Shown here one piece after another: positions 25,985 through 47,286 of a DNA stretch of 64,000 nt. How positions within the stretch are numbered: position 1 is the stretch's first letter; each line of letters begins with the position of its first letter. Where the stretch lies: assembly GCA_963783375.1 (NCBI GenBank), contig CAWANH010000028.1, positions 1,389,670 through 1,453,669 of the forward strand. The letters run 5' to 3'. The stretch comes from Candidatus Eiseniibacteriota bacterium. Lineage in GTDB: Bacteria > Eisenbacteria > RBG-16-71-46 > JABDJR01. The notes under the pieces were generated by a model. The model made no database searches. It saw nothing but the letters and a program-made list of their open reading frames with translations, and was not told the DNA's origin. A program made the position numbers and the translations under genes.

Positions 25985-27364
25985 ATGAGCGAACTCGGAA
26001 CCGCCGCCCGGCCCCTGCGCGTGGCCGTGGTCGGAAGCGGTCCTGCCGGCTTCTACGCCGCCGAAGCCCTGTTCAAGTCGGAGAAGGTCGTGCACGTGGA
26101 CATGTTCGACCGGCTCCCCACCCCTTTCGGGCTGGTGCGCGGAGGCGTGGCCCCCGACCATCAGAAGATCAAGAACGTCATCAAGGTCTACGATCGCATC
26201 GCCGCCGCCGACGGCTTCGCCTTCTTCGGGAACGTCATGGTGGGACGGGACGTGGACGTCGAGACCTTGAAGCGCCACTACGACGCGATCATCTTCTCGA
26301 GCGGCGCCGAGACCGACCGGCGCCTGGGCATTCCCGGCGAGGATCTCCCGGGAAGCCACACCGCCACCGAGTTCGTGGGGTGGTACAACGGGCACCCCGA
26401 CTTCCGGAACCGAGAGTTCGACCTCTCCGCCGAGGTCGCCATGGTGATCGGCCAGGGGAACGTGGCCATGGACGTGAGCCGCATCCTGGCCAAGACGGTG
26501 AAGGAGCTCGAGGACTCCGACATCGCCGGCCACGCCCTGGAGGCCCTCTCGCGGAGCAAGGTGAAGCACGTGCACATGGTCGGGCGGCGCGGCCCCGCCC
26601 AGGCCAAGTTCACCCCGCCCGAGATCAAGGAAATCGGCGAGCTGGCGGACTGCGATCCGGTGGTGGACCCGGCCGACCTGGACCTCGACCCGGCCAGCCG
26701 CGCGGAGCTGGAGCTTCCCGACGCCAAGCTCAACCGGAAGAACGTGGAAACGCTCCAGGAGTACGCCGCCCGCCCCGCTCCCACCAAGAGCCGCCGCTAT
26801 CACATCCGCTTCTTCCTGAGCCCGGTGGAGCTTAGGGGCGACGGTCGGGTGGAAGAGGTGGTGTTCGAGCGGAACGCGCTCAAGGGCGAGCCGGGGAACC
26901 TCTGGGCCGAGGGGACCGGCGAGCGCTTCGCCGAGCCCTGCGGCATCTTCTTCCGGAGCGTGGGGTATCGCGGGGTGGCGATCCCCGGCCTCCCCTTCAA
27001 CGAGCGGAAGGGCATCATCCCGAGCCGCGAGAGCCGGGTGGTCGAGGGAGAGGTGGTGCTTCCCGGGATCTACGTGGCGGGTTGGATCAAGCGGGGCCCC
27101 TCCGGGGTGATCGGGACCAACAAGCCGTGCAGCTACGAGACGGTGGCCTCGCTTCTCGAAGACCTCCCCAGGCTCGAGCCCTGCCCGGTCCCCGACTCCG
27201 ACGCGCTCCGCGGTCTCCTGGAGGCGGGCGGGGCGCATGTGGTGAGCTTCGACGACTGGCGGAAGCTGGACGCGGCCGAGATCGCCCGCGGAAAGGAGCG
27301 GGGGAAACCCCGGGAGAAGTTCGTGACCATCGAGGAGATGCTGGCCCACCTCGCCCAAGGCTGA
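25985..27364 (+). CDS. FprA-like NADPH:ferredoxin/adrenodoxin reductase family flavoprotein
   Basis: [18 protein letters not shown] motif and the second dinucleotide motif [13 protein letters not shown]. About 459 aa, as for mycobacterial FprA. Confidence 0.8.
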
Positions 27365-27425
27365 TCGCCGCGGTCCGGCTCCGACCCCTTCACGCCCTGG
27401 CGATCCCCACGGGCAGGATGTCTCC

Positions 27426-28509
27426 ATGAGCGAACCGGTCTCCATCGAGCTGATCGAACGGGTGCGGGAGGCCGTTTCCCGCCACACCCGGCGGACGCGT
27501 GGAGAGAGGTTGCTATCATCCCGCATGTCGAACCAAGCGCCGACGCTCCCACCTCGCCTGGTGAGAAGGTGCGGCCGACCGTCGACGCGGCGCCCGGCGC
27601 ACCCCGCTCCTGCACAGTGAATGGCTCTCGGCGCTGGTCGGCGGGGAAGTTCGCCTGAAGTGCGAGAACCTCCAGGTGACGGGGTCCTTCAAGATCCGGG
27701 GCGCGATCGCGGCCCTGGCCGGGATGTCGCCGGAGGAACGCGCGCGGGGGGTGGTGGCCGCATCCGCCGGAAACCACGGCCTGGGGCTGGCCCGCGCGGC
27801 CTCGATCTTCGGCGTCCCCCTGACGGTGGTGGTCCCCCGCGGCGCCCCCCGGGTGAAGGCGGAGGGGATCGCCGATCTCGGCGCCCGCGTGCTCCGATCC
27901 CCTCACGACGGCTACGACGCGACCCATGCCTGGACCCTGGAACGCCTGGAGGAGTGGGGGGGCCGGTTCGTGTCGGCCTTCGAGGACCCGCCGATCATGG
28001 CCGGAAACGGCGGCACCACGTTCCTGGAGGTGCTGGAGGAGTTTCCCGACCCGGACGTGGTGATCGCTCCCTGCGGGGGGGGCGGGCTCTCGATCGGGAT
28101 GGGGGTCGCGGCGCGCGCGCGAAGTCCCCGCACCCGGATCGTGGGGGTGAACACCGACGCCTCGCCGGGGATGTGGCTCTCCCGCCGGGACGGCCGCGCC
28201 TACCTGGAGGTCGAGAGCCGGCCGACCATCGCCGAGGGCCTGGAGGGCGGGGTGGGGGAGCGGAGCTTCGCTCTGGGCCGGACCTACATCGACGACGTGA
28301 TCCAGGTCCCCGAGGCCACGATTCGTCGCGCGGTGGTGGACGTCCTCCGTCACGAGCACGTGCTGGTGGAGGGCTCCGGCGCGGCCGGGGTCGCGGCGAT
28401 CCTGGACGGCGCGGTGGATCTGGCCGGCCGGCGGGCGGTGGTGATCCTGAGCGGTGGGAACATCGATCCGCCGCTTCTCACGCAACTCCTCGCCGAGGCC
28501 TCGGAGTAG
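27426..28509 (+). pseudogene. threonine/serine dehydratase-like PLP enzyme interrupted by a ~106-nt out-of-frame insertion
   Basis: N-terminal exon-like ORF MSEPVSIELIERVREAVSRHTRRT reads in frame 0. The rest, TPLLHSEWLSALVGGEVRLKCENLQVTGSFKIRGA... (PLP-Lys motif SFKIRGA), reads in frame +1 and contains no ATG; its first start-type codon is the GTG at 27676, inside the conserved core. Joining RHTRRT to PLLHSEW would restore a canonical N-terminus. The ~106-nt insert (27498-27603) is flanked by imperfect direct repeats (CCCGGCGgAC / CCCGGCGcAC). Confidence 0.65.
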
Positions 28510-28677: not shown

Positions 28678-31239
28678 CTATTGGGTGAGCACCAGCTTCT
28701 GCACCGTGGTCTCCGAGCCGGCCTCGAGCCGGACCACGTAGAAGCCCGCGGCGGCCCGGCCGCCGGAGTCCAGACGACCGTTCCAGGTCGCGGTATGCGA
28801 TCCCGCGCCCTGGATCTCGTCCACCAGCGTCGCCACCTTCCGGCCCTGGGCGTCGAAGATCGAGAGACGCACCGGGCTCGCCCCGGGGAGGCCGTAGGCG
28901 ATGGAGGTGGAGAAGGTGAACGGGTTCGGCCGGCCCGGCGCCATGGTGAGCGCGCCCGGAACGGCCGAGGCCGCCTGGAGGGTGAGGGGGCCGTGCCACT
29001 CGATGCCGCCGGCGCGGCTGATCTCGGCCAGCCAGTAATCCACCCGGGCGGTGGGCGCGGAGGCGTCCACGAACTCGTAGTGGGTCTGCCCGGAGAGGAG
29101 GCCGGTGGAGATCATCTCCCGAGCGGCTCCGGGAAGCTGGCGGTAGACCTGGAACCCGGCATGGTCGACGGCTTCCGCCACCTCCCAGCTCAGCACCGCG
29201 CCGCGCGCGTCGCGCTGGACGGAGAACGCGGAGAGCTTGACCGGAACCGGGCACTCCACGGTGATCACCGCGGCGCAGGTATCCGAGCGCCCGCAGGCGT
29301 CGGTGGCGATCAGGAGCACGTTCGTGTTCCCGAGGGCGTAGGGCCCGGGGGGAATGAGGCTGAGGGTGAACGGGTCGCCGTCGGGATCGTAGCTCCCGTC
29401 ATCCACGTCGGACGCGGTCACGTAGCGGGCGATGCAGGAGACGGTGGAGTCCCCCATCACCACCACGTTCTTGCACAGGGCCACCGGCGGCGCGTTCAAC
29501 TGGAACGCGCCCCAGCGGGTTCCCCACCGGCCGTATTCCCGCAGGGTGTCGGGAGGAGACGTGGTGATGCAGGCGGTGGGAGTGCCGCGGTTCAGGGCGT
29601 ACTCGTTGAACACCCAGAACGTGCTCTGGTCGGCGGGATCCAGGGAGATGCCGCTGTAGTCCCCCCAACGGTTCCGCGACCCGCAGAAGGTCCGCCGGTA
29701 GCAGTCGGCGCCGGCGGCCAGGATTCCGCTGGACTGGACGGTGCCGGCGGCGTCGGTGACCCGGCGGCCGGTGTAGTAGGCGCCGGGGTGGATGGTCTGG
29801 TTCGATGCGGCGAACCCGAAGGCGAGGTTCCCGCACACGTCCACGTCCACCGACGGGAAGAAGGTCATCATGCCGGCGTCGATGTCCTCACCCCCGATGC
29901 TCCCCTGGTCGCTCAAGGCGATCGCCGCCAGGACCTGGGTGTTCATGTTCCACCAGTGCGCGGTGGCCTGGGCGGCGTCCACGCCCGCCGCGGGGCGGAT
30001 GATGCTGGCCGCGTAGAGGTGGTTGTTCCTCCACACCACCGAGTAGGCCCGGCGGTCCCCGGTGTCCACCGGTGCGCTGGGGGGGAGCTCCTTGGGGTGG
30101 ACGAGGCTGCAGCCCATCTGAGGGGCATCCGGCACGCCGATCCGGGCGTCCTCGATGTTCCCCACGAACACGAACTGCTGGCTGAAGCTCGGAGCGCCGA
30201 GGGGATTGTCCACCCGGGTGACGCTCACCGCCTCCTGGCCGGCGCCGGACCCGAGACCGAAGTCCTGGGACCAGCCCGCGCTCACCAGGAAGATGCCGTT
30301 TCCGGCCGGGTTGGGGCCGTACATGCGGCTGGGCATCTGGGTGAACTCGCCGGCGATGACCGACGGGTCGTAAACGTTCACCGAGGCCGCTCCGCCGGCG
30401 TAGAGGGGGTTCTTGTCGATGATCCAGAGGCGGGTGTCGGCGAAGTACCCCCGGTTCAATCCGCCCGGATCCTCCGAGGCGAAGTTGAACATGTTGGCGG
30501 TGATGTAGATGGCCTCGTCGTCCACCGCCAGGCCCGGATAGTCCGCCCAGTGGAGGAGGGGGACGCCGAAGGCGGTGCTGGTGATGGTCACCGCGCTGTT
30601 GACGGAGGTGTAGTACCACGTTCCGTTGGGGTCGCTGTCGTCGGAGACCGCCACCAGGATGTGCGAGGTGTTCGCGGCCGCCCCGAACGCGGTCTCGGTC
30701 TGGTCCAGGGCGATCGCCACGAAGCGGCCGCTGTACTGGTCGTAGATCACCTTGGGATCGAAGCAGGCGGTGAGGGGGCTCACCGGGGCGAAGAAGCTCG
30801 CCAGGTCGGTCCGGAACTGCTCGGTCCCGCCCTTGTCGAACGCCTGGATGATCGTGTTGACGATGTTGACCACGTGGCCCGGCCCCGCGGCTCCGTTCGG
30901 ATCCGGGGGGATGAAGATGTAGCCGTTGAGCGGAATACTGGAGTCGAAGTTCACCCCCTCGATGGTGGTGAGGAGCGAGGGGGCGCCGGCCGGCGGCGCG
31001 GGAGGGGCGAGGTTGGGGATCTGGACCTCAACCGCCCCCACCTCGGACTGGGCCGGGGGCGACGCGGCGAAGGCCTCCGGGTCGATCGAGGGGACGGGGG
31101 TCACCGAGGGCGCGGGATCGAGGGCGAAGGCCGGGGCCGCCGTGACGACCGCGAATACGAGGACCGCGAGGAGCCCGATCGCGACACGCGGTCGTGGGCC
31201 GGATCTGTGAGAGATTGGCAAGGCTAACCGGATCGACAT
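28678..31239 (-). CDS. large secreted protein with a T9SS/FlgD-Ig-type C-terminal sorting domain
   Basis: N-terminal signal peptide. Internal Cys-rich Ig/HYR-like module. C-terminus PNPFTFSTSIAYGLPGASPVRLSIFDAQGRKVATLVDEIQGAGSHTATWNGRLDSGGRAAAGFYVVRLEAG matches the T9SS type-A/FlgD-Ig sorting domain pattern. Confidence 0.75.
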   Translation of the reverse strand: MSIRLALPISHRSGPRPRVAIGLLAVLVFAVVTAAPAFALDPAPSVTPVPSIDPEAFAASPPAQSEVGAVEVQIPNLAPPAPPAGAPSLLTTIEGVNFDSSIPLNGYIFIPPDPNGAAGPGHVVNIVNTIIQAFDKGGTEQFRTDLASFFAPVSPLTACFDPKVIYDQYSGRFVAIALDQTETAFGAAANTSHILVAVSDDSDPNGTWYYTSVNSAVTITSTAFGVPLLHWADYPGLAVDDEAIYITANMFNFASEDPGGLNRGYFADTRLWIIDKNPLYAGGAASVNVYDPSVIAGEFTQMPSRMYGPNPAGNGIFLVSAGWSQDFGLGSGAGQEAVSVTRVDNPLGAPSFSQQFVFVGNIEDARIGVPDAPQMGCSLVHPKELPPSAPVDTGDRRAYSVVWRNNHLYAASIIRPAAGVDAAQATAHWWNMNTQVLAAIALSDQGSIGGEDIDAGMMTFFPSVDVDVCGNLAFGFAASNQTIHPGAYYTGRRVTDAAGTVQSSGILAAGADCYRRTFCGSRNRWGDYSGISLDPADQSTFWVFNEYALNRGTPTACITTSPPDTLREYGRWGTRWGAFQLNAPPVALCKNVVVMGDSTVSCIARYVTASDVDDGSYDPDGDPFTLSLIPPGPYALGNTNVLLIATDACGRSDTCAAVITVECPVPVKLSAFSVQRDARGAVLSWEVAEAVDHAGFQVYRQLPGAAREMISTGLLSGQTHYEFVDASAPTARVDYWLAEISRAGGIEWHGPLTLQAASAVPGALTMAPGRPNPFTFSTSIAYGLPGASPVRLSIFDAQGRKVATLVDEIQGAGSHTATWNGRLDSGGRAAAGFYVVRLEAGSETTVQKLVLTQ

Positions 31240-31478
31240 GGTGTCTCTCCTTCCCGATGTGCGAACGATGGATGGATGTGCGGGCCGCCGGGGCCGGGGA
31301 CGTGGCGCCGACGCTAGGAACAGATACGAAGATGTTCATACCATGGATCGCGCCTGCATAATATTACATTTTTGTAATGCATTGAAAAAACAACGGTTAC
31401 GCAAGCCGGTCCGCCTGCGGGCGAGGTCGTCTTTGGAAGACCGCCTGAAAGATTTCCGACACTTCGCAACTCTTGTCC

Positions 31479-33465: not shown

Positions 33466-34313
33466 GACGATCATCTCCTTGCGCGAGGATGGGTAATCCG
33501 CCCTGACAGCGCACGTGCCCGCTGGCTGATATTGCAATCCGCGGGCCATCGGAGCAGAAAAGGTGCAGCTCTAACCCGATTCTGAACAACCGCTTAGGAA
33601 TTGGTAGTAAATCAATCACTACAGTCTCCCTGAAAGTTGTAATCAATCTCGACAATGCGGGTCGATCAGGGCAAGTTCTTGAGCCAGCTAAATACTTAAC
33701 GCTATGATTGTATGCGTGTTACTGGTGTTCTGGGTTCAGCATCGTTCCCATCTAAATTCGTAAACTTTGGAGACGGCTCGAATCCCCTAGGTAACCCGTG
33801 TTGCCGATGTGGGTTGTGGGCTCCCTGGTCCGGGGTAGGGTCCGGGGCCCCAGAGGGGAAGCACCCTAGGCTGCGGGTTGACCCCAGTGACCGCTTCCCC
33901 CTCCCGTAAGCACAGCAGATCCGCCCAGAGTGAGGACGCCCCGCGGCCGCGGTTTGGCGCGGCGAAGGGCGACTCACCTACCTCGACATACCGATGCTCG
34001 CCTCTCCGGTTTCCCGGCGTGAACGCTCCCTCTTCATCCAGCATGGAGGTTGCGATCGTGCTTTCGCCCCGGACTCGACTTCGGCCGGCCGGTTTTCGAT
34101 GACTCGAGGTAGACCAGACTCTCCCGGGACCGTGCACGATCAGGCACGCATTCAGGACCATGCAACTCACCTTTCAAGGCGCCGTTTGTTACGAAGCTTT
34201 CGAGCGGACCGGGTAAAATAGCGGGGTAGACCGGGGTCGCGCGGGGGGCTTGTGTCGCCTGAGGCACCCGCAGGGTAGAAGGGATCGCGCTTCGGCGCGC
34301 ACAGGGAGGATGC

Positions 34314-35513: not shown

Positions 35514-35730
35514 ACGAGGGTCCGGACGGCGCTCTTGGGAACCCGCCGGATGGCGGAGGGGGACGCCGCCGGCGCAGCGAAGACCGCCTTCACCCCTGGC
35601 GCCCGGCCACGCGGTTCGTGGTCGGGCAGACGTGCCGATGCAGGGACCGCTCATCCGGGCCGCCGGATGGCGCCACCTCGCCGCGCACGGTCACCAACCA
35701 GAATCGAGCCCGTAGCTTGGAAACCCCCAG

Positions 35731-36611
35731 ATGAAGGCGCTTGTCGTGTTGAACCGGGCGGCCGGGCAGGAAGCCCACCAATCGGTGCGGGTGGCGCTCG
35801 GCCGGCGGTTCGGGGCCTCCCCGATCCGGTACGTGGTCCACGAGACCGTGAAGGACGAGAAGACCGGTGAGATCGTGCGGGCCCGCCTGGGGGATGGCTT
35901 CGATCTGGTCGTGGCCGCGGGGGGGACGGGACGGTTTCCGACGTCATCGATGGACTGGTGGGAACCACGGTCCCGCTCGGAATCATCCCGACCGGGACCG
36001 GGAACCTGATTGCCCGCGAGCTCGGTATTCCAACCGACGTCGACGATGCGGTCGCCCTCATCACCGCCCCCCACCGGTCGAGAAGCATCGACGCGATGCG
36101 GATCGGCGAGCGTGTGTTCATCCTGAACGTCAGTGTCGGGGTCAGCGCATCCGTCATCGGAGGCACGACGCCCAAGTACAAGAGCCGCTTCGGCCGCGTC
36201 GCCTATACCTGGACCGTCATTTCGAAGCTCTTCACGTTGAGGCCTCGGCGCCTCACCGTCGCGGTAGACGGTACCGCCCATGAGTATCACGCGTTCGAGG
36301 TGGCGGTCATGAACTGCGGGATCCTCGCCAAGATGCTGTATCCGAAGGGGCCCGAGATCAGCATCGACGACGGTCGTCTGGACGTTCTGGTCCTCGGGAT
36401 CAGGACCATTCGCGACTATCCCCGCTACGTTCTCGGTGTCGTCTCGGGCCGGAGGCCGGACATCGTGTCGCGTTTCCTCACCGCGGAAAGAAGCGTCACC
36501 ATCCGGAGCGCCCAGCCGGTGCCGGTGCAGGCCGACGGGGACATGATCGGTAGCAGCCCGATCGAGATCGAACTATTGAGGGGTGCGGTCAGCGTGCTCG
36601 TACCGCTTTGA
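35731..36611 (+). pseudogene. DAGK/YegS/sphingosine-kinase-like lipid kinase with a -1 frameshift in a G7 run
   Basis: N-terminal ORF MKALVVLNRAAGQ...VVAAGG in frame +1. The rest, DGTVSDVIDGLVGTTVPLGIIPTGTGN..., reads in frame 0. The break is at G7 (35913-35919); a G8 would restore a canonical VVAAGGDGT motif. Either a sequencing error or a real frameshift. Confidence 0.65.
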
Positions 36612-36724
36612 AAGCGGGCGCGGGTGCCCTCCGACCCGCGCCCGGCACTTCCCTTGCACCGCCCGGCCGCGCCGTCACGTGATTTCCGGCACCCTCATGG
36701 CCGCGACGTGAACGGCCTTGTCGC

Positions 36725-37084
36725 CTAGGACGGCTTGCCCTTCAGGGCGAGAATCGTCGGGGCCACCAGGCCGATGAGGACGCCGGCCCCGACTGCGATC
36801 CCCAGGGCCATGAGCGGGTGGCTCACAACCCGGCTACGGAAAGCCGTGGTCGCGAGCCTGTCGTGCGCCCTCGCCGTCCGGATCGTGATCCGTCCGGTTT
36901 CCTTGACCGCGGCCGCTCCGGAGTCGGCCACCTGGCGTGCATCCTTGGCCATTCTGACGAAGTCGCTCTGCAGCCGTCCGAAATCCATGCCGAGTGTCTG
37001 CATGTTGCTCGGGGGTTGTGTTGCGCTGGTGGGTCCGCCGTCGGTCCCCGGCTCGCTCGTGGTCAAAGTACTCGCCTTCGGCAA
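36725..37084 (-). CDS. DUF883/ElaB-YqjD-like membrane-anchored stress protein
   Basis: Helical N-region with a single C-terminal TM segment PLMALGIAVGAGVLIGLV. The start may be the internal MQTLG. Confidence 0.5.
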   Translation of the reverse strand: MPKASTLTTSEPGTDGGPTSATQPPSNMQTLGMDFGRLQSDFVRMAKDARQVADSGAAAVKETGRITIRTARAHDRLATTAFRSRVVSHPLMALGIAVGAGVLIGLVAPTILALKGKPS

Positions 37085-37213
37085 GGAGTGCCTCTTCGTT
37101 CCGCGCGTTCATGGGCCGAGCACGCTGTCTACCGTCTCCTGGGGCACCCGCGACTGCCCCCCGCTCCCTCGACGCAGCCCTCTCCGCGTCGGCGGTGACC
37201 GACGAACGGCCGC

Positions 37214-38242
37214 CTACGGCTTGACCGGGTTTTCAAGGACGATTTCGACTCGCCGGTTGTTGGCCCGCCCCTCGCTGGTGGCGTTGCTGGCAATCGGGTG
37301 TTCCTCGCCCATTCCGTTCGCCTGCACGCGACCCGACGGATAGCCCTTGTGAATGAAGTAGTTGCGAACGGCGTCCGCGCGCCGCTGCGACAGCTCTTGA
37401 TTGTATTGATCGGACCCCTGGGAATCGGTGTAGCCCTCTACCACGATGTTGCGATCGGGGATCGAGACCAGGGCGGCGACGACCTGATCGAGCTTCGACT
37501 CAGCGCCGGGCATGAGCCGGGCCTCACCCGAGCGGAAGAGCACGGTTCCCGAAAGGGTGATGATCATCCCGCGGGCCTCTTCCCTGACCGCGGCGAGCTT
37601 TGCGAGCGCGGCCTGGGCATCGGCCGCCTGCTTCTCGGCCTGGGCCCGGGCGCTCTGCTCCGCTTCGAGTTGAGCCTGAGTCGCCTGGCCGCTCTGTTCC
37701 GAGAGCGCCAACGCGGTCCGGGTCTGGTTCAGATCCTGCGCCACCCCTTGGGTCCGCATGCGTTCCGCCGCGGCCTTGTCATCCGCGACCGCCCGGGCCC
37801 TCTTCTCGGCCGCGAGTTGCGTCGCCGTCTCCTGGCGGTTCTGCTCCGACGCCGCGAGTGCGGTCTGCGTCCGGTTCAGGTCTTCGGTCTTCTCCTGGAG
37901 AAGATTCCCTTGAGTGGCCTGATAGGCCTTGTCCGCCTGCGCCGTGCGCGCCTGCTCGATGGCGATGGATGCCTGCGCCTCGGCGATCTCGGCCTTCCGC
38001 TGGGCTACATAAGCGAGGTCGCGGGTACGGTACGACTTGGCGTCCTTGGAGAAGGATGCCTCGGCCTGGGCCAGCGCCTTCTCCGCGGTGTGCAGGTCCG
38101 CGGGGGCCATCTGGGCCGCCGGTCCCTCGCTGGCATGAGCGTAAGCCAGGCGCGCACTGGTGAGTTCGCTGGGGACGGTGGCGGCACAGCCGAAGAAGGA
38201 GGCTGCACACGCGATGGCGATCAATGCTCCGGTGATTCTCAT
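37214..38242 (-). CDS. OmpA family lipoprotein with a coiled-coil linker
   Basis: Lipobox AASFFGC. Long Ala/Gln/Glu coiled coil. C-terminal OmpA domain (ITLSGTVLFRSGEARL...NRRVEIVL). Confidence 0.8.
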   Translation of the reverse strand: MRITGALIAIACAASFFGCAATVPSELTSARLAYAHASEGPAAQMAPADLHTAEKALAQAEASFSKDAKSYRTRDLAYVAQRKAEIAEAQASIAIEQARTAQADKAYQATQGNLLQEKTEDLNRTQTALAASEQNRQETATQLAAEKRARAVADDKAAAERMRTQGVAQDLNQTRTALALSEQSGQATQAQLEAEQSARAQAEKQAADAQAALAKLAAVREEARGMIITLSGTVLFRSGEARLMPGAESKLDQVVAALVSIPDRNIVVEGYTDSQGSDQYNQELSQRRADAVRNYFIHKGYPSGRVQANGMGEEHPIASNATSEGRANNRRVEIVLENPVKP

Positions 38243-38262
38243 GAGATGCCCCTTCCGGGTGG

Positions 38263-38616
38263 TCATCGGTTATCGTTCTGAAGCTGGCGCACCCGCGCCA
38301 TGGCCTCGGCGGCCGCCGTCTGCTCGGTCTGCTCCTTGGAGAGCAGGGCGGCCAGTTCCGCGTCAGCCTCGGCCCGCAGCAGCATCGAGTCAGCCTTGTC
38401 CTTGTCGCCCTTGTCCGCCAGGCTCTTGGCCTGAGCCAGCTCTTCCCTTGCAAGCTGCAAGTGGAGTGCGGCCTGGGGAACGTCCTTGGCTCCGACCGCC
38501 TCCGCCGTGCTTATGGCCGACGTGGACGACTCGGTTTGCAGGGGAGGATCACTGCCCGCGCAGCCGGCGGCGACGAATGCGAAGAGAAGAGCTCCGTACG
38601 TCAATCTGAATCTCAT
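38263..38616 (-). CDS. DUF4398-like lipoprotein
   Basis: Lipobox VAAGCAG and a helical body. Overlaps the OmpA-family start by 4 nt, a typical pairing. Confidence 0.6.
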   Translation of the reverse strand: MRFRLTYGALLFAFVAAGCAGSDPPLQTESSTSAISTAEAVGAKDVPQAALHLQLAREELAQAKSLADKGDKDKADSMLLRAEADAELAALLSKEQTEQTAAAEAMARVRQLQNDNR

Positions 38617-38648
38617 TCGGATTTCCTTCCTTACCGCCCATGGTGGCG

Positions 38649-39305
38649 TCAGAAGTTGTAGCCCAGCGCCAGCGTGGTGGTGAAACCGTTCAACTCGAAT
38701 CCGTTCAGGGTGTATTCGGTATCGTTCAGCTTGATCTTCTGATCGCCGAACGACGGGTTGGCCCAGACGTAACGCCCTTCAACTCCCACGAAGAATGCGG
38801 GGCTTACGTTGACGTTGAGACCGACTCCGGTATGAAGCCCGAAGGTCGTGCTTCCGTTGAACGTGTTGAGATTGTTGCTGACATCGACCTTCGTGAAATA
38901 GGCGCCGATGCCCAGCTCACCGTAGGGGTCGACCGGTCCCGCCGGCATGAAGGCCTTGGCCGAAACCAGGACCGGAACCACGTCGAAGTCGACCTGATCA
39001 CTGGTTGCGAGCGGGCCCGTTCCCGCGACGGAGCCCGTACCCCGGAAGTATCCGATGCCCAGCTCGAGGGCGAAGGTGGGAAGGAAGAAGTGCCCGATGG
39101 CGAGTTCCCCGTCCACGCCGGTTCTGGTATTGCTGTCGAAGGTGGTCTCGACGTTGACATTCGAGAGATTGAAGGACTTGCTGGGCGAGTAGATGCCGCC
39201 TTTGAGGGCAACATAGCTGCCGAGCCGGCCGGCCTCGGAAGCCCGGGGCGCAAGACCGATCACGCTGAAGATGATCAACAAGGCCAAAGAGGATTTCGTC
39301 CTCAT
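38649..39305 (-). CDS. outer-membrane beta-barrel (OmpW/OmpA-like porin) protein
   Basis: Signal peptide MRTKSSLALLIIFSVIGLAPRASEA. Alternating amphipathic beta-strands and a C-terminal aromatic LALGYNF. Confidence 0.65.
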   Translation of the reverse strand: MRTKSSLALLIIFSVIGLAPRASEAGRLGSYVALKGGIYSPSKSFNLSNVNVETTFDSNTRTGVDGELAIGHFFLPTFALELGIGYFRGTGSVAGTGPLATSDQVDFDVVPVLVSAKAFMPAGPVDPYGELGIGAYFTKVDVSNNLNTFNGSTTFGLHTGVGLNVNVSPAFFVGVEGRYVWANPSFGDQKIKLNDTEYTLNGFELNGFTTTLALGYNF

Positions 39306-39927
39306 GGTCGCTCCTTTTGAGGCAACGCGTGAGTTGCGTCGCCGGGGGCTCCATTCAGGAGCCCTTCGCGGGGGGGATGCCGTGAGGTCAGCGCCGCCTG
39401 TTCTCAATCGCAGGCTTGGCGTGCCGCGCTCCATTCTCCCCGCACGCAGCATTCGTTGAGCAATTCGCGTGCCGGGTGGGAGACCGCATAAGAATCAATA
39501 CGGCAACCACTTGGAAACGAGGGGGTCCGGCTTGGTCCATCAAAACGATGGGGTGAGCATCATTGTGATGCGGGTCGGGATGCCGCGGTGGGGCGGAAAC
39601 CTGATCCCGAACGGCACGAACAACGGGTGGTCCGGCGGTCGACCGGGGGCCTGGTCGCGGGCAGTTCGGCGATGGCAAAGCCGGTTCACTCCTTGAGGTT
39701 GACCCTCATCCGGCGTCGTCGGGATGCTTCAGGCGTCCGGGGTTGGGGGTTGCGTTCCAACGAGTGGATTACGGGGCAAGGCCGTCCCGGCACACTGGTT
39801 GCAGTACCGGATGGTGATCCAATCACGAAGGGCGCCGGTTCAAGGAGGACCGGGGCGCCCCGCCCGAAAGCATGCCGGGGTCGCTCCCGGACAAGGCTTC
39901 GGCCCAACCAAGAAATTGGAGCATCTC

Positions 39928-40329
39928 ATGAGAATGTACCAAAGGGTCACGTTGGCCTTCATTACCGCCGGGGTGGTTGCGGTCGGCGCCGCAGGGTCCT
40001 GCCTTGCGGGAGAGCCGCAACGCAACGTCGTCGGCGACCAGGAGATCCAGGCCACGATCGACCAGCAAGTCGGCCAGGCCGACGCCGACCGGCTGGCGAT
40101 TCAGGTCCTGTTGCAACGGGAGGATGTCAGCCGGATCGCCGGGTCGGCCGGATTGGATCTGGAGCGGGCCAGCGCCGCCGCCGCCGGCCTGTCGGGACCC
40201 GACCTGGAAAGGCTGGCGGCTCAGGCCAGAGGGATCAATGAAGGGTTTGCGGGCGGAGACGGCACCGTCGTGCTTTCCACGACCGCGATCATCATCATTC
40301 TGCTGATTCTGATTCTTCTCCTGAACTGA
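39928..40329 (+). CDS. small exported protein with a C-terminal poly-Ile/Leu tail
   Basis: Signal peptide MRMYQRVTLAFITAGVVAVGAAGSCLAG. Ends in GGDGTVVLSTTAIIIILLILILLLN, a C-terminal sorting-signal-like hydrophobic tail with no basic cluster. Confidence 0.45.
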   Translation: MRMYQRVTLAFITAGVVAVGAAGSCLAGEPQRNVVGDQEIQATIDQQVGQADADRLAIQVLLQREDVSRIAGSAGLDLERASAAAAGLSGPDLERLAAQARGINEGFAGGDGTVVLSTTAIIIILLILILLLN

Positions 40330-40340
40330 ACTCTTCGATC

Positions 40341-41087
40341 GTGAAATCGTGGCGGACAGCCGGCGTTTGCGTGGCGACGGCCGCTCTGGCCTGGCTCACT
40401 CCCGCCAGCGCCGAAGCGAAGTCGGTTCGGAAGAGCGCTCCGGAGACGGTGGAGCTTCTCGACGTACCGTACGTCCCCCAGAGCGGAGAGCTGTGTGGCG
40501 GAGCGGCACTCGCCATGGTTCTGCGCTACTGGGGGAAATCCGGCGTCCTGGCGGAGGATTTCGCCCCGCTTGCGGAGCCGGGAGCGGGCGGTATCCGTAC
40601 CGGCGCACTGGTGAGGTGGGTCGAGGCCCATGGGTGGTCCGCGCTCCGCTTGCCGGGAGCCCCGGCGGAGGTCGAGAGTCATCTTGCCCGGGGCCGCCCG
40701 GTCATCGCTCTGATCCGGACCGGTTCGGGCTCCTACCACTACGTGGTACTCGTGGCCTGGGCCAACGGGTGGGTGATCCTCCATGACCCCAACGTGGGGC
40801 CGTTCCGAACCGTTCGGGAAGGGGAGTTCGAGACCGCCTGGTCGGGAAGCGACGACTGGGCACTCCTGGTCCTGCCGCCTCCCGCGCCTCGGGAGCCGGT
40901 CCTGCCGGATTCCGGAGGCGCCGACCTCCCTCCCCGCGTCATCCCCGATGGATGCGGCGCCTTGGTGGACGCGGGGGTCCTCTTGGCCCGGGAAGGAGAC
41001 ATCGCGGAAGCGGAGCTCAAGCTTCGTGGCGGCTCAGTCCCTTTGCCCCGAGTCCGCCGTCCCCGCTTCGGGAACGGGCAGGGTTGA
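40341..41087 (+). CDS. peptidase C39-like (papain-fold) domain protein with a signal peptide
   Basis: GTG start and a signal peptide. VPYVPQSGELCGGAALAMVLRYWG matches the Peptidase_C39_2 Gln/Cys region. The C-terminal 20 aa look like out-of-frame read-through. Confidence 0.6.
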   Translation: MKSWRTAGVCVATAALAWLTPASAEAKSVRKSAPETVELLDVPYVPQSGELCGGAALAMVLRYWGKSGVLAEDFAPLAEPGAGGIRTGALVRWVEAHGWSALRLPGAPAEVESHLARGRPVIALIRTGSGSYHYVVLVAWANGWVILHDPNVGPFRTVREGEFETAWSGSDDWALLVLPPPAPREPVLPDSGGADLPPRVIPDGCGALVDAGVLLAREGDIAEAELKLRGGSVPLPRVRRPRFGNGQG

Positions 41088-42417
41088 GATTTCGTGCCGA
41101 GGACTGGGAGGGGGCGGCCGGCTCGCGGAGGAGGCGCTGGCTCTGGATCCGGGCGATGCCCACTCCTGGCGGCTTCTGGCCGGAAGCCGCTTCCTGGCCG
41201 GGGACGTGGAAGGGGCGCTCACGGCCTGGAATCACCTGTCCGAACCCAGGATCGACCTGACCCACATCGACGGCCTGAATCGCATCCGCTACTCCGCGGT
41301 GGCCGGCCAGCTCGCCTTGCCTCCCGGGCGGCTCCTCACGCCTCAGGCCTTCCTCCAGGCGCGCCGTCGTCTGGCCGAATTGCCCTCCCAGTCCGATTTC
41401 CGGCTGAGCTTGCGGCCCTTGCCGGACGGAAGGGCTCAAGTGGATGTGTCCGTGCTGGAGCGCCCTCCGCTGTTCGGCGGTTTCTGGGACGCCGGAAACC
41501 TGGGCATCCGGGCGCTCCTGGACCGGGAGATCACCCTCGACGTCGTGAGCCCCACCGGGAACGGGGAACTATGGAATGCCGGATGGCGGTGGCAGAGGCA
41601 ACGGCCGCGCGTCGCCCTGGACCTGGCGGTGCCGGGGGCCGGAGGCCGGCCCGGAATCTGGCATGTGGCCGGATTCTGGGAACGACAGACCTATGCCTAT
41701 CCGGGGTTCGCCGGCTCGGGTGGCGCGACTCGTTCCCGGTCGATCCAGGAAGAGCGCCGGCGCACCGCCCTGTCCATTTCCGATTGGATCGGCCCGAATT
41801 TCCGGCTCGAGGTCGGGAGCGCCCTGGACGAGTGGGTGGGTCGGGGATCCCATCTTTCACTGGAGGGTAGCGTCGAGACCCGATGGGCACGAGACCGCCT
41901 GGCATTGGGGGCAAGGGGAGCAAGGTGGATGAGCCTCGCGGACGGCGCCCCGTTCGGCGCCGGCGGCCTCTCGCTCACCTGGTGCTCGGATGGTCTCGAG
42001 AGGCGCGAGGGGTGGCAGGGCGGTCTGGAAGTATCCGCCGCTACCCGGGAGGCTCCACTGGCTCTCTGGTCCGGAGCCGGAACCGGGTCCGGGCGTACCC
42101 CGCTCCTCAGGGCTCACCCGCTGCTGAACGGGGGGGTTCTGGAAGGGCGGGTGTTCGGGCGGGCGCTTGCTCACGGGACGATCGAGAGGCAGGTGTGGTC
42201 GCACAGCCTCGGTCCCTTCCGTCTCGGCTGGGCGGTCTTCGTCGACGGGGCCAAGCCATGGGACCTGGGGCGCCCGGGCCGGGTCCCGTGGCAGGTGGAC
42301 GGCGGAACGGGGCTCCGGGTTCACGGTCCGGGAATGAAGGGGAAACTCAGGGTCGACGCCGCCCGCGGGCTTCTCGACGGGAGCTCGGCGGTATCCGTCG
42401 GTTGGAGCATTCCCTGA
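41026..42417 (+). CDS. TPR plus POTRA plus beta-barrel (Omp85/TpsB-like) protein, probably the 3' part of the C39 gene across a frameshift
   Basis: Frame +1 encodes TPR-like LAEEALALDPGDAHSWRLLAGSRFLAGDVEGALTAWN. It then encodes a POTRA-like segment (IDGLNRIRYSAVAGQLALPPGRLLTPQAFLQARRRLAELPSQSDFRLSLRPLPDGRAQVDVSVLE) and a beta-rich C-terminus. This frame has no signal peptide or RBS of its own. Deleting one nucleotide near 41023-41028 joins it to the C39 ORF. Confidence 0.5.
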   Translation: MAAQSLCPESAVPASGTGRVEISCRGLGGGGRLAEEALALDPGDAHSWRLLAGSRFLAGDVEGALTAWNHLSEPRIDLTHIDGLNRIRYSAVAGQLALPPGRLLTPQAFLQARRRLAELPSQSDFRLSLRPLPDGRAQVDVSVLERPPLFGGFWDAGNLGIRALLDREITLDVVSPTGNGELWNAGWRWQRQRPRVALDLAVPGAGGRPGIWHVAGFWERQTYAYPGFAGSGGATRSRSIQEERRRTALSISDWIGPNFRLEVGSALDEWVGRGSHLSLEGSVETRWARDRLALGARGARWMSLADGAPFGAGGLSLTWCSDGLERREGWQGGLEVSAATREAPLALWSGAGTGSGRTPLLRAHPLLNGGVLEGRVFGRALAHGTIERQVWSHSLGPFRLGWAVFVDGAKPWDLGRPGRVPWQVDGGTGLRVHGPGMKGKLRVDAARGLLDGSSAVSVGWSIP

Positions 42418-42503
42418 GCGGGGGCACCCTTCTCGATCTCGCCCAGAGCCTTCACGGGGCTGGCGACAATGCTGCTCCGCACACCTCCTGACCAGAGTCT
42501 CTC

Positions 42504-43667
42504 CTATCGCAGAAGTACAACTCTCCCCCGGGCAAGCGCCACGCCGCGGCGGGAGGCCTCGAGGAAGTAGACACCCTCCGCGAGACGCCGCCCCACACTG
42601 TCCCGTCCGTCCCAGGCAATCCCGTGGTCCATGTCAACGCCGGCAATCGCTAGCCGACGAACGAAGTGGCCAACCGAGTCGTACACCACCAGCGCATCCA
42701 GGTTGCCATTCACGCCGGACACTCGAATCAGCGTGTGTCCGCGGAACGGATTGGGCCGGGCAGTCATCAGCATCGGCTGGGTAGGAGGTGCCAGATCCGC
42801 ACCCAGCGTGGGAAGGGACAAGTCGGTCATCACCCAGATGCCACCGGGACCCGCAAACGCGATCGCCGTTCCATCCGGGGACCAGCATGGCTCCCGGGCG
42901 AGGTCCTCGCTCGAGGCCTTGATTTGGACGGGATCTCCTCCGGACGCAGGAATGGTCCAGAGGGTGTAGCGCTCATTGAGTCCGGGCTGGTGGAATCGAA
43001 TCGCATAGAGGATCCATGACCCGTCCGGGGACCAGTCCGGATCGCGAACTGTGTAGCGATTGTCGGGATGAGAGTAGAGCCCGGTTGGGGCGGCGCTGCC
43101 GTCGGCGGGGACCGTAAACAGAGTGCCGCTGCTGGTGTTGTTCACAAAGGCGATCTTCGAGCCATCCGGTGACCAGGACGGTGCCGTCGACTGGTTGCCG
43201 ATTCCCTCGATCGGGACACGCGCGGCATAGCCACCGGGGGTGGCGGGGCAGACGAATACGCGGGAGTTGACCGTGAATGCGAGCTGATCGCCGAGCGGCG
43301 ACCAACTCAAGTAGTTCGTGTTGCCCCCGAGGCCGGTTCGCAGCGTGTCCCCGGCCTCTACTCCCGGGCAGATCACTGTCCCGCCCGGGGACTCGAAGGC
43401 AACGCTGCTGCCGCCGGGGGACCAGGTGGGGAACCACGCGATCGAGCCAGCGAGATCATAGGTGACCTCCACCGGCGCTCCGCCGGAGCTGGGGACGATC
43501 ATGATGTGATAGCCACGCGTATAGACGATTCGATTGGATCCGTCCCGTGACCACTGAGGGTCATAGCCGCTGTCGAAGGTGATCTGGGTAAACGTGGCGG
43601 CGGTGGCGGGGCCGCTGACGAAACCGAGTGCGGCAAAGAGGAGAAAGAAGAAGGGCAAAGCACGCAT
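42504..43667 (-). CDS. TolB-like WD40/PD40 beta-propeller protein with a T9SS/FlgD-Ig-type C-terminal sorting domain
   Basis: Signal peptide and repeated WSPDGS PD40 motifs. C-terminal PNPFRGHTLIRVSGVNGNLDALVVYDSVGHFVRRLA...GVYFLEA sorting domain. Confidence 0.75.
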   Translation of the reverse strand: MRALPFFFLLFAALGFVSGPATAATFTQITFDSGYDPQWSRDGSNRIVYTRGYHIMIVPSSGGAPVEVTYDLAGSIAWFPTWSPGGSSVAFESPGGTVICPGVEAGDTLRTGLGGNTNYLSWSPLGDQLAFTVNSRVFVCPATPGGYAARVPIEGIGNQSTAPSWSPDGSKIAFVNNTSSGTLFTVPADGSAAPTGLYSHPDNRYTVRDPDWSPDGSWILYAIRFHQPGLNERYTLWTIPASGGDPVQIKASSEDLAREPCWSPDGTAIAFAGPGGIWVMTDLSLPTLGADLAPPTQPMLMTARPNPFRGHTLIRVSGVNGNLDALVVYDSVGHFVRRLAIAGVDMDHGIAWDGRDSVGRRLAEGVYFLEASRRGVALARGRVVLLR

Positions 43668-44287
43668 CCAGACCTCCTCGAATCAACGCGATCTTGGGAT
43701 CGCAACCCCGAGAGTGCGGAACCGCCAAGAATTTATCATATCAAAGATGCGCAGGGGCACGATTGGAGACGTTCGAGCCTCGCGGGTCCGGATACCGAGA
43801 TCTCTTCGGGCGGTCAAGACCGGGGCGATTGAGCCCAATTCCCTCCGGGGATGGCGCACCGGCGGGTTCCCGTCCAGAAGGGCCTCACTCCCGGCAATTC
43901 CGCGACTCCGGAGCTGCCAAGTTACTGGCCAGCCCCGAGTTCAGGCCCTATGGGAGCATCTTGAGGAGAGAGAGTATTTCCCAGACAGTTGGAATCCTGG
44001 CACCCGATCCTCAATCTCCAGACCTCCCGCCATCAGCCGACCGAGCCAGGGGTACCCTCCAATCAGCTTCGGCTAGCGAGCCCGCTTTCCCCGTCAAGAA
44101 ACTGTCGAGCTTCAAACTGCTCCCTGGGCCAGCCTCGGCCCCGGTGAACGCCATGATGACGTGGAGGGTCGAAGACCGGATGCACGATCAGAATGCGAAT
44201 CCCGTTGCGAAGCAGCCTTCCTCTGACTCGTCTTACACCAACTCCATGCGACGAGGTCGGCCGTCTCGGTGAGGCCATCGTGCGATT

Positions 44288-44785
44288 GTGCCGATGCCTG
44301 CGGAGACCGCGGGAGCGACGAACCTCGACCCCCTGAAGATCGACTCTCGCCCCTGTACGAGATGCAAGCGCCGGATCGGTTGCGACGATGACCACCGTCC
44401 GGAGTGGGCCAATCAGAGGCTCTCGGAACTCCAGCACGAGAAGGCGGCACTGGAGCCCCAGGAGCCGGCCTTGAAGAAGCCGCCGAAACTAACGGCCGGA
44501 GACGTGACCGAGTACACCCGGAACCTGTCCGGGCTGCTGGGCCACGCTAACCAACGGGAAAGAAAGGAGTTGGTGGGTATGATCGTGGAGAAAATCAAAC
44601 TGGCCCCGGAGCGTCGGGAGGTAGAACTCGTCTACCGCGCTCCGGAGCCAGTCATGAATAGGTTGGTAGCGGGGGTGCGTTACGGGGCCCGACAGAGGAA
44701 TCTCGGAGGCGAATTCGAGGTCATCGAGCTGGCGTTCGAGCCCCGGGGGAACACGTTGGTCCTGGTGGGGGCGGCCGGCGGGTAG
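44288..44785 (+). pseudogene. C-terminal fragment of a large serine recombinase (zinc-ribbon plus coiled-coil tail); the catalytic domain is absent
   Basis: CTRCKRRIGC partial zinc ribbon. Then a coiled coil and a tail (ERKELVGMIVEKIKLAPERREVELVYRAP) typical of large serine recombinase C-termini. No resolvase catalytic domain is found upstream in any frame. Confidence 0.35.
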
Positions 44786-44799
44786 GAGAGCGGGTTCGC

Positions 44800-44870
44800 C
44801 GGGACGTCCTTGACGTCTCGCGATGGCCCGGATAGAATCACCAGCAGATTCGCATAACCGCTGGTATTTC
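44800..44870 (+). promoter_or_regulatory. inverted and direct repeats upstream of abiEi (candidate autoregulatory operator)
   Basis: GACGTCcttGACGTC (44802-16). Inverted repeat ACCAGC...GCTGGT (44840-45 / 44860-65), flanked by the GATAGAAT / ATTTCTATTC arms. Confidence 0.35.
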
Positions 44871-44875
44871 TATTC

Positions 44876-45502
44876 ATGAAGACAGAACATAACTCAAATC
44901 AGGACAGCACGTTTGCCAGGGCGGTGGCCGTCTTCCGCGACCACGGAGGGGTGCTCAGGACAATGGAGGCGGTCCGGCTCGGCGTCCACCCGCGAACGCT
45001 CTATGCCATGCGGGATGCCGGGGTGCTGGAGCAACTCGGGCGGGGGCTCTACCGGCTGGCGAACCTGCCGCCACTCGGGAACCCCGACCTGGTGGCGGTA
45101 GGCCTCCGCGTTCCGGAGGGGGTCCTCTGCCTGATCTCGGCGCTGGCGGTTCACGAGATCACGACCCAGATCCCTCATGAGGTCCATCTGGCTCTCAAGC
45201 GTGGCGCCGAACCACCACGGCTGGATCACCCCCCGGTTCGGGTGTTCTGGTTCTCGGGAAAGGCTTTCACGGAAGGGATCGAAACCCACGAGCTGGACGG
45301 GATCGAAATCCGCGTCTACGGGGCGGCGAAGACCGTGGCGGACTGCTTCAAGTACAGAAACAAGCTCGGACTGGATGTGGCCCTCGAGGCGCTGGGACTC
45401 TACCTGCGAGAGAAGCACGGACCCCCCGACGATCTCGTGCACTTCGCTCGCGTATGTCGTGTCGAAAAGGTGATGCGCCCCTACATCGAGGCCCTCCTGT
45501 GA
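44876..45502 (+). CDS. abiEi: AbiEi-family antitoxin / transcriptional regulator (type IV TA)
   Basis: AbiEi_4-like N-terminal winged-HTH (VAVFRDHGGVLRTMEAVRLGVHPRTLYAMRDAGVLEQLGRGLYRL). Its stop overlaps the GTG start of the downstream nucleotidyltransferase gene. Confidence 0.7.
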   Translation: MKTEHNSNQDSTFARAVAVFRDHGGVLRTMEAVRLGVHPRTLYAMRDAGVLEQLGRGLYRLANLPPLGNPDLVAVGLRVPEGVLCLISALAVHEITTQIPHEVHLALKRGAEPPRLDHPPVRVFWFSGKAFTEGIETHELDGIEIRVYGAAKTVADCFKYRNKLGLDVALEALGLYLREKHGPPDDLVHFARVCRVEKVMRPYIEALL

Positions 45503-46419
45503 AGCGCCGGCAGGTGGGAAACGTGGCGGTCTCCGTTCATCAGCGCCTGCTCAACGAGGCGCGTGCGTCCGGCCGGCCATTCAATGAGCTACTCCAGTAC
45601 TTCGCCATGGAGCGATTCCTATTCCGGCTGTCCGCGTCGCCATACGCCGAGAGGTTTGTTCTGAAGGGGGCGCTCATGCTCGCGACGTGGGAGATCTCCC
45701 TCACGCGTCCCACCAAGGACATCGACCTACTGGGCAACGTGACCAACGACGTCGATCACATCGTGGCGATCGTGAAGGAAGTGTGCCGTCAAGAGGTCAC
45801 GCCGGACGGCCTGGACTTCGACCCGGAGAGGGTGCGTGGGGAGCAAATCGCCGAGGAAGCCGAGTACAACGGGGTGCGTGTCCGCTTTCAGGGGCGCCTC
45901 GGTACGGCGCGGATTTCCATGCAGATCGACATAGGCTTTGGTGACGCCGTGGTACCAGGCCCGGTGGCGGTCGAGTATCCCACGATGCTGGACCTTCCAG
46001 CTCCACGGATTCGCGCCTACACACAAGAGAGCGTGATCGCTGAGAAGTTCCACACCATGGTTCGCCGGGGACTCCTCAACAGCCGAATGAGGGATTTCTT
46101 CGATGTCTGGGCCCTATCGCGGCAGTTCGACTTCGATGGGCCGGTTCTGGCGGCAGCAATCCGCGAGACGTTCTCGCGGCGAGGGCAAGGCTTTGCTCCA
46201 CACCCCGTGGCGCTGACAAAGGAGTTCGCGGAGGATAGGTCGAAGGTGGCGCAGTGGCGGGGTCTTCTACGGAAGAGCCGCCTGCAGGGCGCGCCGGGCG
46301 AGCTGGCGGATGTGGTTGACGCCATTGCCGTCTTCCTCGGCCCGGTTGCAGAGGCCCTCTATGAGGATCGGGAGTTCCGAGGCCGTTGGGATGCGCCCGG
46401 TCCCTGGACGTTGGCGTGA
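45499..46419 (+). CDS. abiEii: AbiEii/AbiGii-family nucleotidyltransferase toxin
   Basis: DUF1814-type fold, with LLQYFAMERFLFRLSAS...KGALML and a nucleotidyltransferase-fold core. The GTGA overlap with abiEi is typical operon coupling. Confidence 0.75.
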   Translation: MKRRQVGNVAVSVHQRLLNEARASGRPFNELLQYFAMERFLFRLSASPYAERFVLKGALMLATWEISLTRPTKDIDLLGNVTNDVDHIVAIVKEVCRQEVTPDGLDFDPERVRGEQIAEEAEYNGVRVRFQGRLGTARISMQIDIGFGDAVVPGPVAVEYPTMLDLPAPRIRAYTQESVIAEKFHTMVRRGLLNSRMRDFFDVWALSRQFDFDGPVLAAAIRETFSRRGQGFAPHPVALTKEFAEDRSKVAQWRGLLRKSRLQGAPGELADVVDAIAVFLGPVAEALYEDREFRGRWDAPGPWTLA

Positions 46420-46572
46420 AGTCCGGTTCTCCCGCGGGAAGCGGGCGCCCATCTTCCCGGACGGGGGGACGACGCCGATGGGGTCATCCGGGGCGCAGAG
46501 CCAGCCCAGAAGGCAGCGGTTCCTTTCGGGCCCAGTTTCTCGCGGGTGCCGGCGACCTCGGCTTTCGTGGCG

Positions 46573-47164
46573 TGGGAGAGCCGTGAAACAAGTTCCCATC
46601 CGTACCACCGGTGCCGGGAAACGCCCTGCCGAACTGGTCTCCCTGCGTGAATACGCCCGCCGGCGGAGCATCTCCCACGTCGCGGTGATCCGTGCCATCC
46701 GCTCGGGCCGGATCTCGACCGTTGGCGGGAAGATCGACCCGAAAGTGGCCGACCGGGAATGGCGGGAGAACACCGACCCGTCGAAACCCCGAAGCCGGAT
46801 CACCGGCAGGCCGAATCACCGGCGACGACCCGGGGAACCGTCCACCCCGATGAACCTCGACGGCTACGGGGCCAGCGACACCACAGCGGCCGGTTACGCG
46901 AGGGCCCGCGCGGCGCGCGAGCTTTACCGGGCCCAGCTCCCGAAACTCGAGCTCGATTGCCGACGCGGAATCCTCGTCCGGGCCGACGAGGTCCGGCTCG
47001 GCGCCTTCAACGTGGCCCGGAAGGCCCGGGACCAGCTGATCGCTCTCCCGGGCCGTATGTCGGCCCGTATCGCGGCGGCCGGGGACCCGGTCGAGATTCG
47101 GCGGATCCTCAAGGAGGAAATCGAGCGGATCTGCCGGGAGATCGTGGACACAGGACCGCCGTGA
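46573..47164 (+). CDS. phage Nu1-like terminase small subunit / HTH DNA-packaging protein (orphan)
   Basis: N-terminal HTH AELVSLREYARRRSISHVAVIRAIRSGRISTVGGKIDPKVADREWREN resembles lambda Nu1. The C-terminal region is coiled. No large terminase nearby. Confidence 0.4.
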
Positions 47165-47286
47165 GGTCGGCGAGGCGGCCCGCTGCCCCGACGGGGGAAA
47201 TGGACCCAGGGGAGGGAGTACCCTCCGAGGCAGGGGCCGGCTCGGGTCACTATTGGGCGGACTTCCCCATCGAGCTGGTGTTCGTG

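Follow-up and report, generated by a model that had tools for sequence, protein, structure and literature searches.

Why is a gene for a threonine-dehydratase-like enzyme written in two different reading frames in the assembled genome of an uncultivated bacterium? The gene lies in a 64,000-nt stretch of DNA (the window) from contig CAWANH010000028.1 of assembly GCA_963783375.1 (Candidatus Eiseniibacteriota bacterium; positions 1,389,670 to 1,453,669 of the forward strand), where 106 nt separate its first 24 codons from the region that encodes the pyridoxal-phosphate (PLP) core. Comparison with related sequences indicates that these 106 nt almost certainly repeat the gene's own 5′ end in tandem, as a second copy that has the form found in a sister strain (B-type) and is placed behind the 24 codons of the resident version (A-type). 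As to how the two versions came to stand in series, we lean, a little beyond an even chance, towards a false allelic ("heterotype") duplication that would have arisen in a strain-mixed long-read metagenome assembly. Nothing at the locus falls outside known kinds.

A first-pass annotation of this DNA had reported that the gene start and the PLP core lie in different frames and that ~106 nt with a stop separate them. Both statements are borne out. The ATG at 27426 opens frame 0, in which the 24 codons read MSEPVSIELIERVREAVSRHTRRT; the threonine-dehydratase-like core, TPLLHSEWLS...SFKIRGA, occupies frame 1, starting at 27601/27604 and ending with the stop at 28509; and the 106 extra bases occupy 27499-27604. 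Along the locus, the A-type leader and 24 codons are followed by the second copy (hereafter B′), which consists of 26 nt of leader, an ATG at 27525, and ~26 codons, and then by the common core. The intervening stop in the core frame is the TGA at 27562-27564, and no ATG, GTG, or TTG start codon occurs in that frame between this TGA and 27676. Because no core-frame start codon precedes the GTG at 27676, the sole callable core product of the window sequence is a 277-aa remnant. A promoter scan found no σ70-like promoter able to drive the remnant open reading frame (ORF), and the exact 64-aa peptide that would be read from the A-type start into the insert is not present in the protein collection. 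Read at face value, the sequence as written is a broken gene, a 64-aa peptide plus a PLP core without a start codon, and is predicted to be non-functional; the earlier suggestion of a pseudogene holds to this extent. The remnant (P0121), which is the only product called in the deposited assembly, is on record at NCBI and ENA on a 2,040,326-bp contig, and the insertion is therefore part of a deposited assembly.

Removal of any 106-nt block from 27487-27592 through 27499-27604 restores the N-terminus ...RHTRRTPLLHSEW..., as had been proposed for 27498-27603, and removal of either 27498-27603 or 27499-27604 yields, base for base, the allele found in another assembly. That allele lies on a 2.39-Mb contig (ENA ERZ25039549 contig_24514; L001) and encodes a protein (P0001) that is 100% identical over its full length to the 325-aa product of the window minus 106 nt. 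The rebuilt N-terminus is thus no chance effect, since the 325-aa protein exists exactly in a second assembly. The surrounding DNA is nearly the same in both: window 17426-27498 matches L001 with 99.94% identity and 0 gaps over 10,073 nt, and the 906-nt core is identical at 905 of 906 positions, without gaps and with a single, synonymous difference. An orthologue with 84% aa identity (P0002, on L004) has the same neighbours, Pyr_redox_2 upstream and FlgD_ig downstream, and a contiguous A-type 5′ end. Its N-terminus is also of the A-type, a type that aligns to the solved structure of the threonine dehydratase TdcB (PDB 2gn0) from query residue 4. An in-frame insertion shared by orthologues, an outcome considered in the first-pass annotation, was not seen: the gene is contiguous in L001, in L004, and in the B-type contig described below (L003), and an uninterrupted ...RRTPL... 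N-terminus is present in ~40 homologue sequences read of 120 listed. The organism probably carries an intact 325-aa enzyme.

Once rebuilt, the protein (~325 aa, one domain) belongs to the fold-type II PLP enzymes of family PF00291 (PALP; assignment precomputed for P0001), with the Schiff-base lysine motif S-F-K-x-R-G, here SFKIRG, at residues 52-57 (lysine codon 27691-27693) and without an ACT-like regulatory domain at its C-terminus. Among solved structures the closest relative is the catabolic threonine dehydratase TdcB (E = 1.9e-55), and the alignment over residues 4-319 and the SFKIRG lysine motif liken it to TdcB and to the serine racemase / threonine-serine dehydratase branch. A point of difference is that it scores below the cut-offs of all NCBIfam threonine ammonia-lyase equivalogs (TIGR01127, NF005600, and others; best 278.2 bits against 378.75). 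"Threonine-dehydratase-like" is therefore the right level of naming, and on these profile and structure matches the assignment is at family level only, to the threonine/serine dehydratase branch of PALP.

What, then, are the 106 nt? The 90% protein cluster to which the enzyme belongs has four members and includes a 329-aa protein (P0123) with a distinct N-terminus, MPEPSSDAPTLDLIQKVRPAVDAGARRTPLLHSEW. P0123 is encoded on a 1,145-nt JGI contig (L003) that is syntenic with the window on both sides. Positions 1-28 of this contig (TTGTATACTAATCTGACCGTGTTTCTCC) are AT-rich, unlike its remainder, and are probably contig-end junk. The insert aligns by blastn to L003 87-195 with 87.2% identity (109 columns, 8 mismatches, 6 gaps, E = 7e-28) and is colinear with the L003 leader, ATG, and first 28 codons, and the 906-nt core matches this B allele at 872 of 906 positions without gaps. 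Compared with the adjacent A-type copy, the insert is only ~58% identical, with an alignment score above those of 497 of 500 shuffles, and the A-type leader is strongly diverged from the B-type leader of L003. The first-pass claim that the 106 nt do not resemble the protein is contradicted by the third frame of the insert, which reads EPSADAPT...KVRPTVDAA, the N-terminus of the sister allele (P0123: MPEPSSDAPTLDLIQKVRPAVDAGARRTPLL).

The flanking imperfect direct repeats belong to the same picture. Both CCCGGCGGAC (27487-27496) and CCCGGCGCAC (27593-27602) are present as annotated and can be lengthened to 12-mers with 10 of 12 positions in common, but they are homologous codons and not a target-site duplication. 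The codons that close each copy are ACC-CGG-CGG-ACG (TRRT) in A and GCC-CGG-CGC-ACC (ARRT) in B′. Differences between the repeats fall at synonymous third positions (CGG/CGC, ACG/ACC) because the "repeats" are the homologous closing codons of two alleles. A repeat finder likewise returned GGTGCGGGAGGCCGT and GGTGCGGCCGACCGT, the homologous VREAV/VRPTV stretch, at a spacing of 107, and the RRT codons at a spacing of 106.

Relative to L003, the six single-base gaps in the insert are all deletions in the window, and the 906-nt body has none. These six deletions interrupt the B-type reading frame twice. Filling them yields MLEPSADAPTLDLVEKVRPTVDAGARRTPLL, a conserved-looking N-terminus with five mostly conservative changes, whose BLOSUM sum is 135, where random substitutions give 120.5 ± 8.9 and 5.6% of random sets do equally well. 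Judged from this alignment, the insert resembles a functional allele on which technical deletions have been superimposed, a poorly supported consensus patch rather than a product of natural decay. Natural decay does not fit because the genome is 99.9% identical to one without the segment. A search for a closer donor allele ("B2") with the 68-aa repaired query returned only short unrelated PALP fragments; with only four members in the protein's 90% cluster, no closer B-type allele is on record.

Table 1. Features of the interrupted gene and its surroundings, in window coordinates.
Feature	Position	Strand	Remarks
A-type intergenic leader	27365..27425	+	Between the Pyr_redox_2 gene (stop at 27364) and the A-type ATG; identical to L001
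A-type 5′ coding end, ATG + 24 codons MSEPVSIELIERVREAVSRHTRRT, frame 0	27426..27498	+	Identical to L001 10001-10073
64-aa ORF, A-type start to TGA 27618-27620 across the insert	27426..27620	+	ORF reading
Left "repeat" CCCGGCGGACGC	27487..27498	+	Codons (T)RRT closing the A-type copy
B′ copy, second allelic copy of the gene's 5′ end	27499..27604	+	B-type leader 27499-27524, ATG 27525-27527, ~26 damaged codons; absent from L001 and L004
TGA in the core frame, within the insert	27562..27564	+	Frame reading
Right "repeat" CCCGGCGCACCC	27593..27604	+	Codons (A)RRT closing the B′ copy; 10/12 positions as in CCCGGCGGACGC
Core of the PALP (fold-type II PLP) enzyme, P25 to stop, frame 1	27604..28509	+	SFKIRG lysine at 27691-27693
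277-aa remnant ORF, first usable start GTG	27676..28509	+	Without residues 1-48; equals P0121
20-mer across the junction of the tandem arrangement, GGCGGACGCGTGGAGAGAGG			

How did the two alleles come to lie in series? Several observations point to the assembly. The neighbouring copies are allelic versions of one locus, the insert resembling the syntenic B allele of L003 and the adjoining copy being the A allele of L001, and the insert is located exactly at the border between 5′ ends and leaders that are ~58% identical in A and B and gene bodies that are 96% identical. False heterotype duplications, a documented class of assembly error, have been reported to concentrate at the edges of divergent regions (PMC9516828), and long-read metagenome assemblers collapse or mix strains (PMC13087279). 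The flanks are purely A-type up to the insert, and the diagnostic site at 27609, 5 nt beyond it, is A-type as well. Moreover, the sample that contains the intact-allele contig (ERZ25039549) holds two versions of window 47297-58798, one on contig_24514 (L006; 99.3-99.5% identity) and one on a separate 11.5-kb contig, contig_114591 (L005; 98.0%, 139 mismatches, 75 gap openings). These two versions are direct evidence for co-occurring related strains and for a noisy, low-coverage consensus, and indel noise is visible in the compared assemblies. In the course of events that we propose, the sampled population would hold A-type and B-type strains together, and the draft would change from a read of one strain to a read of the other inside a block too divergent to anchor, thereby writing the A and B versions in series. 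Polishing with the majority A-type reads would then turn the flanks A-type and would only remove single bases from the unsupported extra segment. An assembly artefact, one of the options listed in the first-pass annotation, is in our judgement the most likely, though unproven, origin on the assembled sequences compared here. Several points weigh against it. A simulation of B reads polished onto an A draft, in which the B allele was placed on the A allele under minimap2-like gap costs, crossed the block directly and opened no 106-nt insertion; that specific mechanism was dropped, and the artefact would therefore need to arise at the layout stage. The window is otherwise cleaner than L001 (853 aa for FlgD_ig, as also in L004, against 701 aa in L001), and a raw-quality patch would therefore be unusual for this assembly. 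Several structural variants separate the window from contig_24514, which makes a real strain-specific variant plausible. The left junction has a GC-rich microhomology, CGC (6/7 in CGGACGC/CGGTCGC), of a kind typical of real illegitimate recombination. Finally, the filled-deletion test for a functional allele is only suggestive, given the share of random substitution sets that equal it. The main rival takes up these points and, although we consider it appreciably less probable, is a possible explanation: DNA of a B-type strain may have been integrated by homology-facilitated illegitimate recombination (HFIR) or by double illegitimate recombination, leaving a very recent, strain-specific pseudogene. 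The right end would have been anchored in the near-identical gene body and the left end joined illegitimately at the GC-rich microhomology in the divergent block, so that the B leader and N-terminal codons were added behind the 24 codons of A rather than replacing them; in a variant of this model, in which the single-base deletions are consensus errors, the gene would now start at the B-type ATG. The anatomy fits HFIR, with more than 900 nt of homology on the right (906 nt, 96-99.9% identical), a 3-nt perfect (6/7) GC-rich microhomology on the left, and a related allele as donor. HFIR joins at microhomologies of 3-10 bp are documented in transformable bacteria (PMC6382021), and in double illegitimate recombination of the short-patch type (SPDIR) ectopic single strands become incorporated at microhomologies (bioRxiv 10.1101/2023.11.22.568220). 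The right edge of the insert is also a natural A/B mosaic boundary, so recombination has occurred at this place before; the window genome and contig_24514 differ by other structural variants; and the insertion is present in the deposited 2.04-Mb contig. A scar is harder to reconcile with six single-base deletions relative to a functional B allele when the 906-nt body is free of them and an intact strain has a 99.9% identical genome: a fresh insertion of a working allele is expected to be clean, and an old one is expected within a decayed gene. This comparison of fidelity to the donor is weak, as L003 is the only B-type reference and may not be the true donor. In addition, donor-type single-nucleotide polymorphisms (SNPs) were not found in the supposed anchor, the first diagnostic site of which (27609) is of the recipient (A) type, and no second assembly with the insertion was found, the 90%-identity protein cluster having only four members.

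Explanations that take the insert to be something other than DNA from a sister strain, or that keep the enzyme whole by unusual decoding, fare far worse. In a local tandem duplication, slippage during replication, or unequal exchange, would have copied the 5′ end inside a single genome, and the copy would later have diverged. The two copies are colinear and homologous, with the spacings of 107 and 106 and the shuffle-beating score given above, but the slippage duplication proposed in the first-pass annotation is effectively refuted by the identities: the second copy is 86-87% identical to the allele of another strain, including its distinct leader, as against ~58% to its neighbour. Such divergence cannot build up while the flanks remain 99.9% identical to an insert-less genome, and we regard this origin as very improbable. 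Slightly more improbable still is the tiny insertion element that the same annotation had listed, a miniature mobile element, either like a miniature inverted-repeat transposable element (MITE) or derived from an insertion sequence (IS), with a target-site duplication (TSD) of 10-12 bp. An insertion of ~100 nt between imperfect direct repeats has that appearance, but the two insert ends form no inverted pair, the segment has no second copy, MITE-like or otherwise, in the 64-kb window, and its sequence is fully explained as the homologous 5′ end of another allele of the interrupted gene. Two of the 12 positions in the right "TSD" depart from the empty site, compared with 1 difference in the surrounding 906 nt, and this right copy equals the codons of the B allele. 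Exact-pattern scans were also empty, with 0 matches to the exact core or to an insert 23-mer in GTDB species genomes and JGI metagenomes and 0 matches to a pattern common to B′ and L003 in genome and metagenome collections; these negatives are weak because the scanned collection lacks the L003 contig, which was itself not recovered. A scan for diverged tandem duplications elsewhere in the window returned only an ABC-F internal repeat and was too insensitive to detect even the A/B′ pair. The least probable reading, to which we give hardly any weight, is that the tandem arrangement is real and that the full enzyme is still made by programmed recoding, with the ribosome either hopping 106 nt between CGG 27489 and CGG 27595 or shifting by +1 at the rare AGA-AGG codons (27564-27569). 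Take-off (CGG 27489, frame 0) and landing (CGG 27595, frame 1) codons do match, the hop product would be P0001, and frame 0 is open through the insert to 27618. However, no stop follows the take-off codon (the next codons are CGG ACG CGT), the predicted fold of 27480-27625 is ordinary (z = +0.42, with 126 of 200 shuffles folding as well) and contains no take-off hairpin, and no Rfam recoding element scored above noise. The gap is also absent from the 99.9%-identical strain and from all orthologues examined (L001, L003, L004), and the B allele's ordinary coding sequence is the source of the matching codons as well as of AGAAGG. A self-splicing intron, an intein, or a known structured RNA was rejected, there being no Rfam match above noise and 106 not being divisible by 3. 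The Rfam scan of 27000-28000 at E ≤ 10 gave only noise (best E 0.29, to a snoRNA model), that of the whole window at gathering thresholds gave noise and one tRNA-Met, and a tRNA/tmRNA scan found nothing at the locus.

Other differences between the window and the related contigs, and other features of the window, were recorded along the way. The gene for the FlgD_ig protein (window 28678-31239, minus strand; L001 11147-13252) differs in called length, 853 aa in the window and L004 and 701 aa in L001, through one extra G at window 30804, which reflects an indel error or frameshift in L001 and not in the window. Two short patches, at window 31360-31476 and 33514-33870, are dense in mismatches and indels relative to L001 in surroundings that are 99.9% identical; they are strain-variable or poorly resolved intergenic stretches. 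Between window 33870-34075 and L001 16350-19218, L001 is ~2.9 kb longer and includes extra DUF7901 genes, which corresponds to a collapsed tandem gene repeat in the window or to a real difference in copy number. From window 35714 to 52147, contig_24514 is ~4.4 kb shorter than the window. An IS3-type transposase pair is encoded at ~48548-49900 on the minus strand, in which an HTH_Tnp_1 ORF comes before the rve integrase-core ORF (322 aa, 48548-49516). GC content is 0.557 at 50001-52000 as compared with 0.67 overall, and a tRNA-Met gene (58839-58915, minus strand) lies beside radical-SAM and CHAT/TPR genes; the region of the 50-52 kb GC drop and the tRNA-Met may be an integrated island. Just beyond the enolase stop, at ~59639-59643 (L006 7497-7580), a GC-rich, hairpin-like intergenic indel of ~86 nt is present in contig_24514 and absent from the window.

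The locus carries a caution: what appears to be the insertion of a tiny element with a target-site duplication is two strain alleles of one 5′ end in series. The same pattern awaits anyone who mines long-read metagenome-assembled genomes for MITEs, recoding sites, or pseudogenes, and a comparison of the "insert" with alleles of the interrupted gene offers a quick check. Here, the publicly recorded 277-aa remnant is probably a misrepresentation of a PLP enzyme that is intact at 325 aa. Were the arrangement real, the locus would offer a modest example from nature of microhomology-mediated recombination among strains that co-exist, at a mosaic 5′ end; that it is such a natural snapshot, in which illegitimate recombination exchanges 5′-end "cassettes" among strains of an uncultivated bacterium that live together, is conceivable but doubtful.

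Translational bypassing in gene 60 of phage T4 involves a 50-nt gap. The present locus resembles it in having a non-coding gap within an ORF, matching codons at the edges, and a protein that is restored by skipping, but the gap is more than twice as long, has no stop after the take-off codon, no hairpin, and no conservation, and is absent from a near-identical strain. Likeness to a MITE or a small IS-derived insertion with a target-site duplication extends to the length of ~100 nt, the short flanking direct repeats, and the position within a gene; in contrast to a MITE, the insert has no inverted termini, is single-copy in the window, and is homologous to the 5′ end of the gene that it interrupts. 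With HFIR, as summarised in PMC6382021 (de Vries & Wackernagel 2002; Prudhomme et al. 2002), and with SPDIR (bioRxiv 10.1101/2023.11.22.568220), the case would share a one-sided homologous anchor, a short GC-rich microhomology at the other end, and a net gain of related, non-identical DNA. It departs from both in the many single-base deletions in the insert and the lack of donor SNPs in the anchor, and it is known here from sequence only. The false heterotype duplications of Ko et al. (2022; PMC9516828) come from diploid vertebrates and usually are of kilobase scale, with gaps or drops in read depth, whereas the present case spans 106 nt and has co-existing bacterial strains in a metagenome as its "haplotypes". 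It nevertheless matches that class in its main traits: two diverged alleles of one locus lie side by side, the site is at a border between divergent and near-identical sequence, and the outcome is a spurious change in gene structure.

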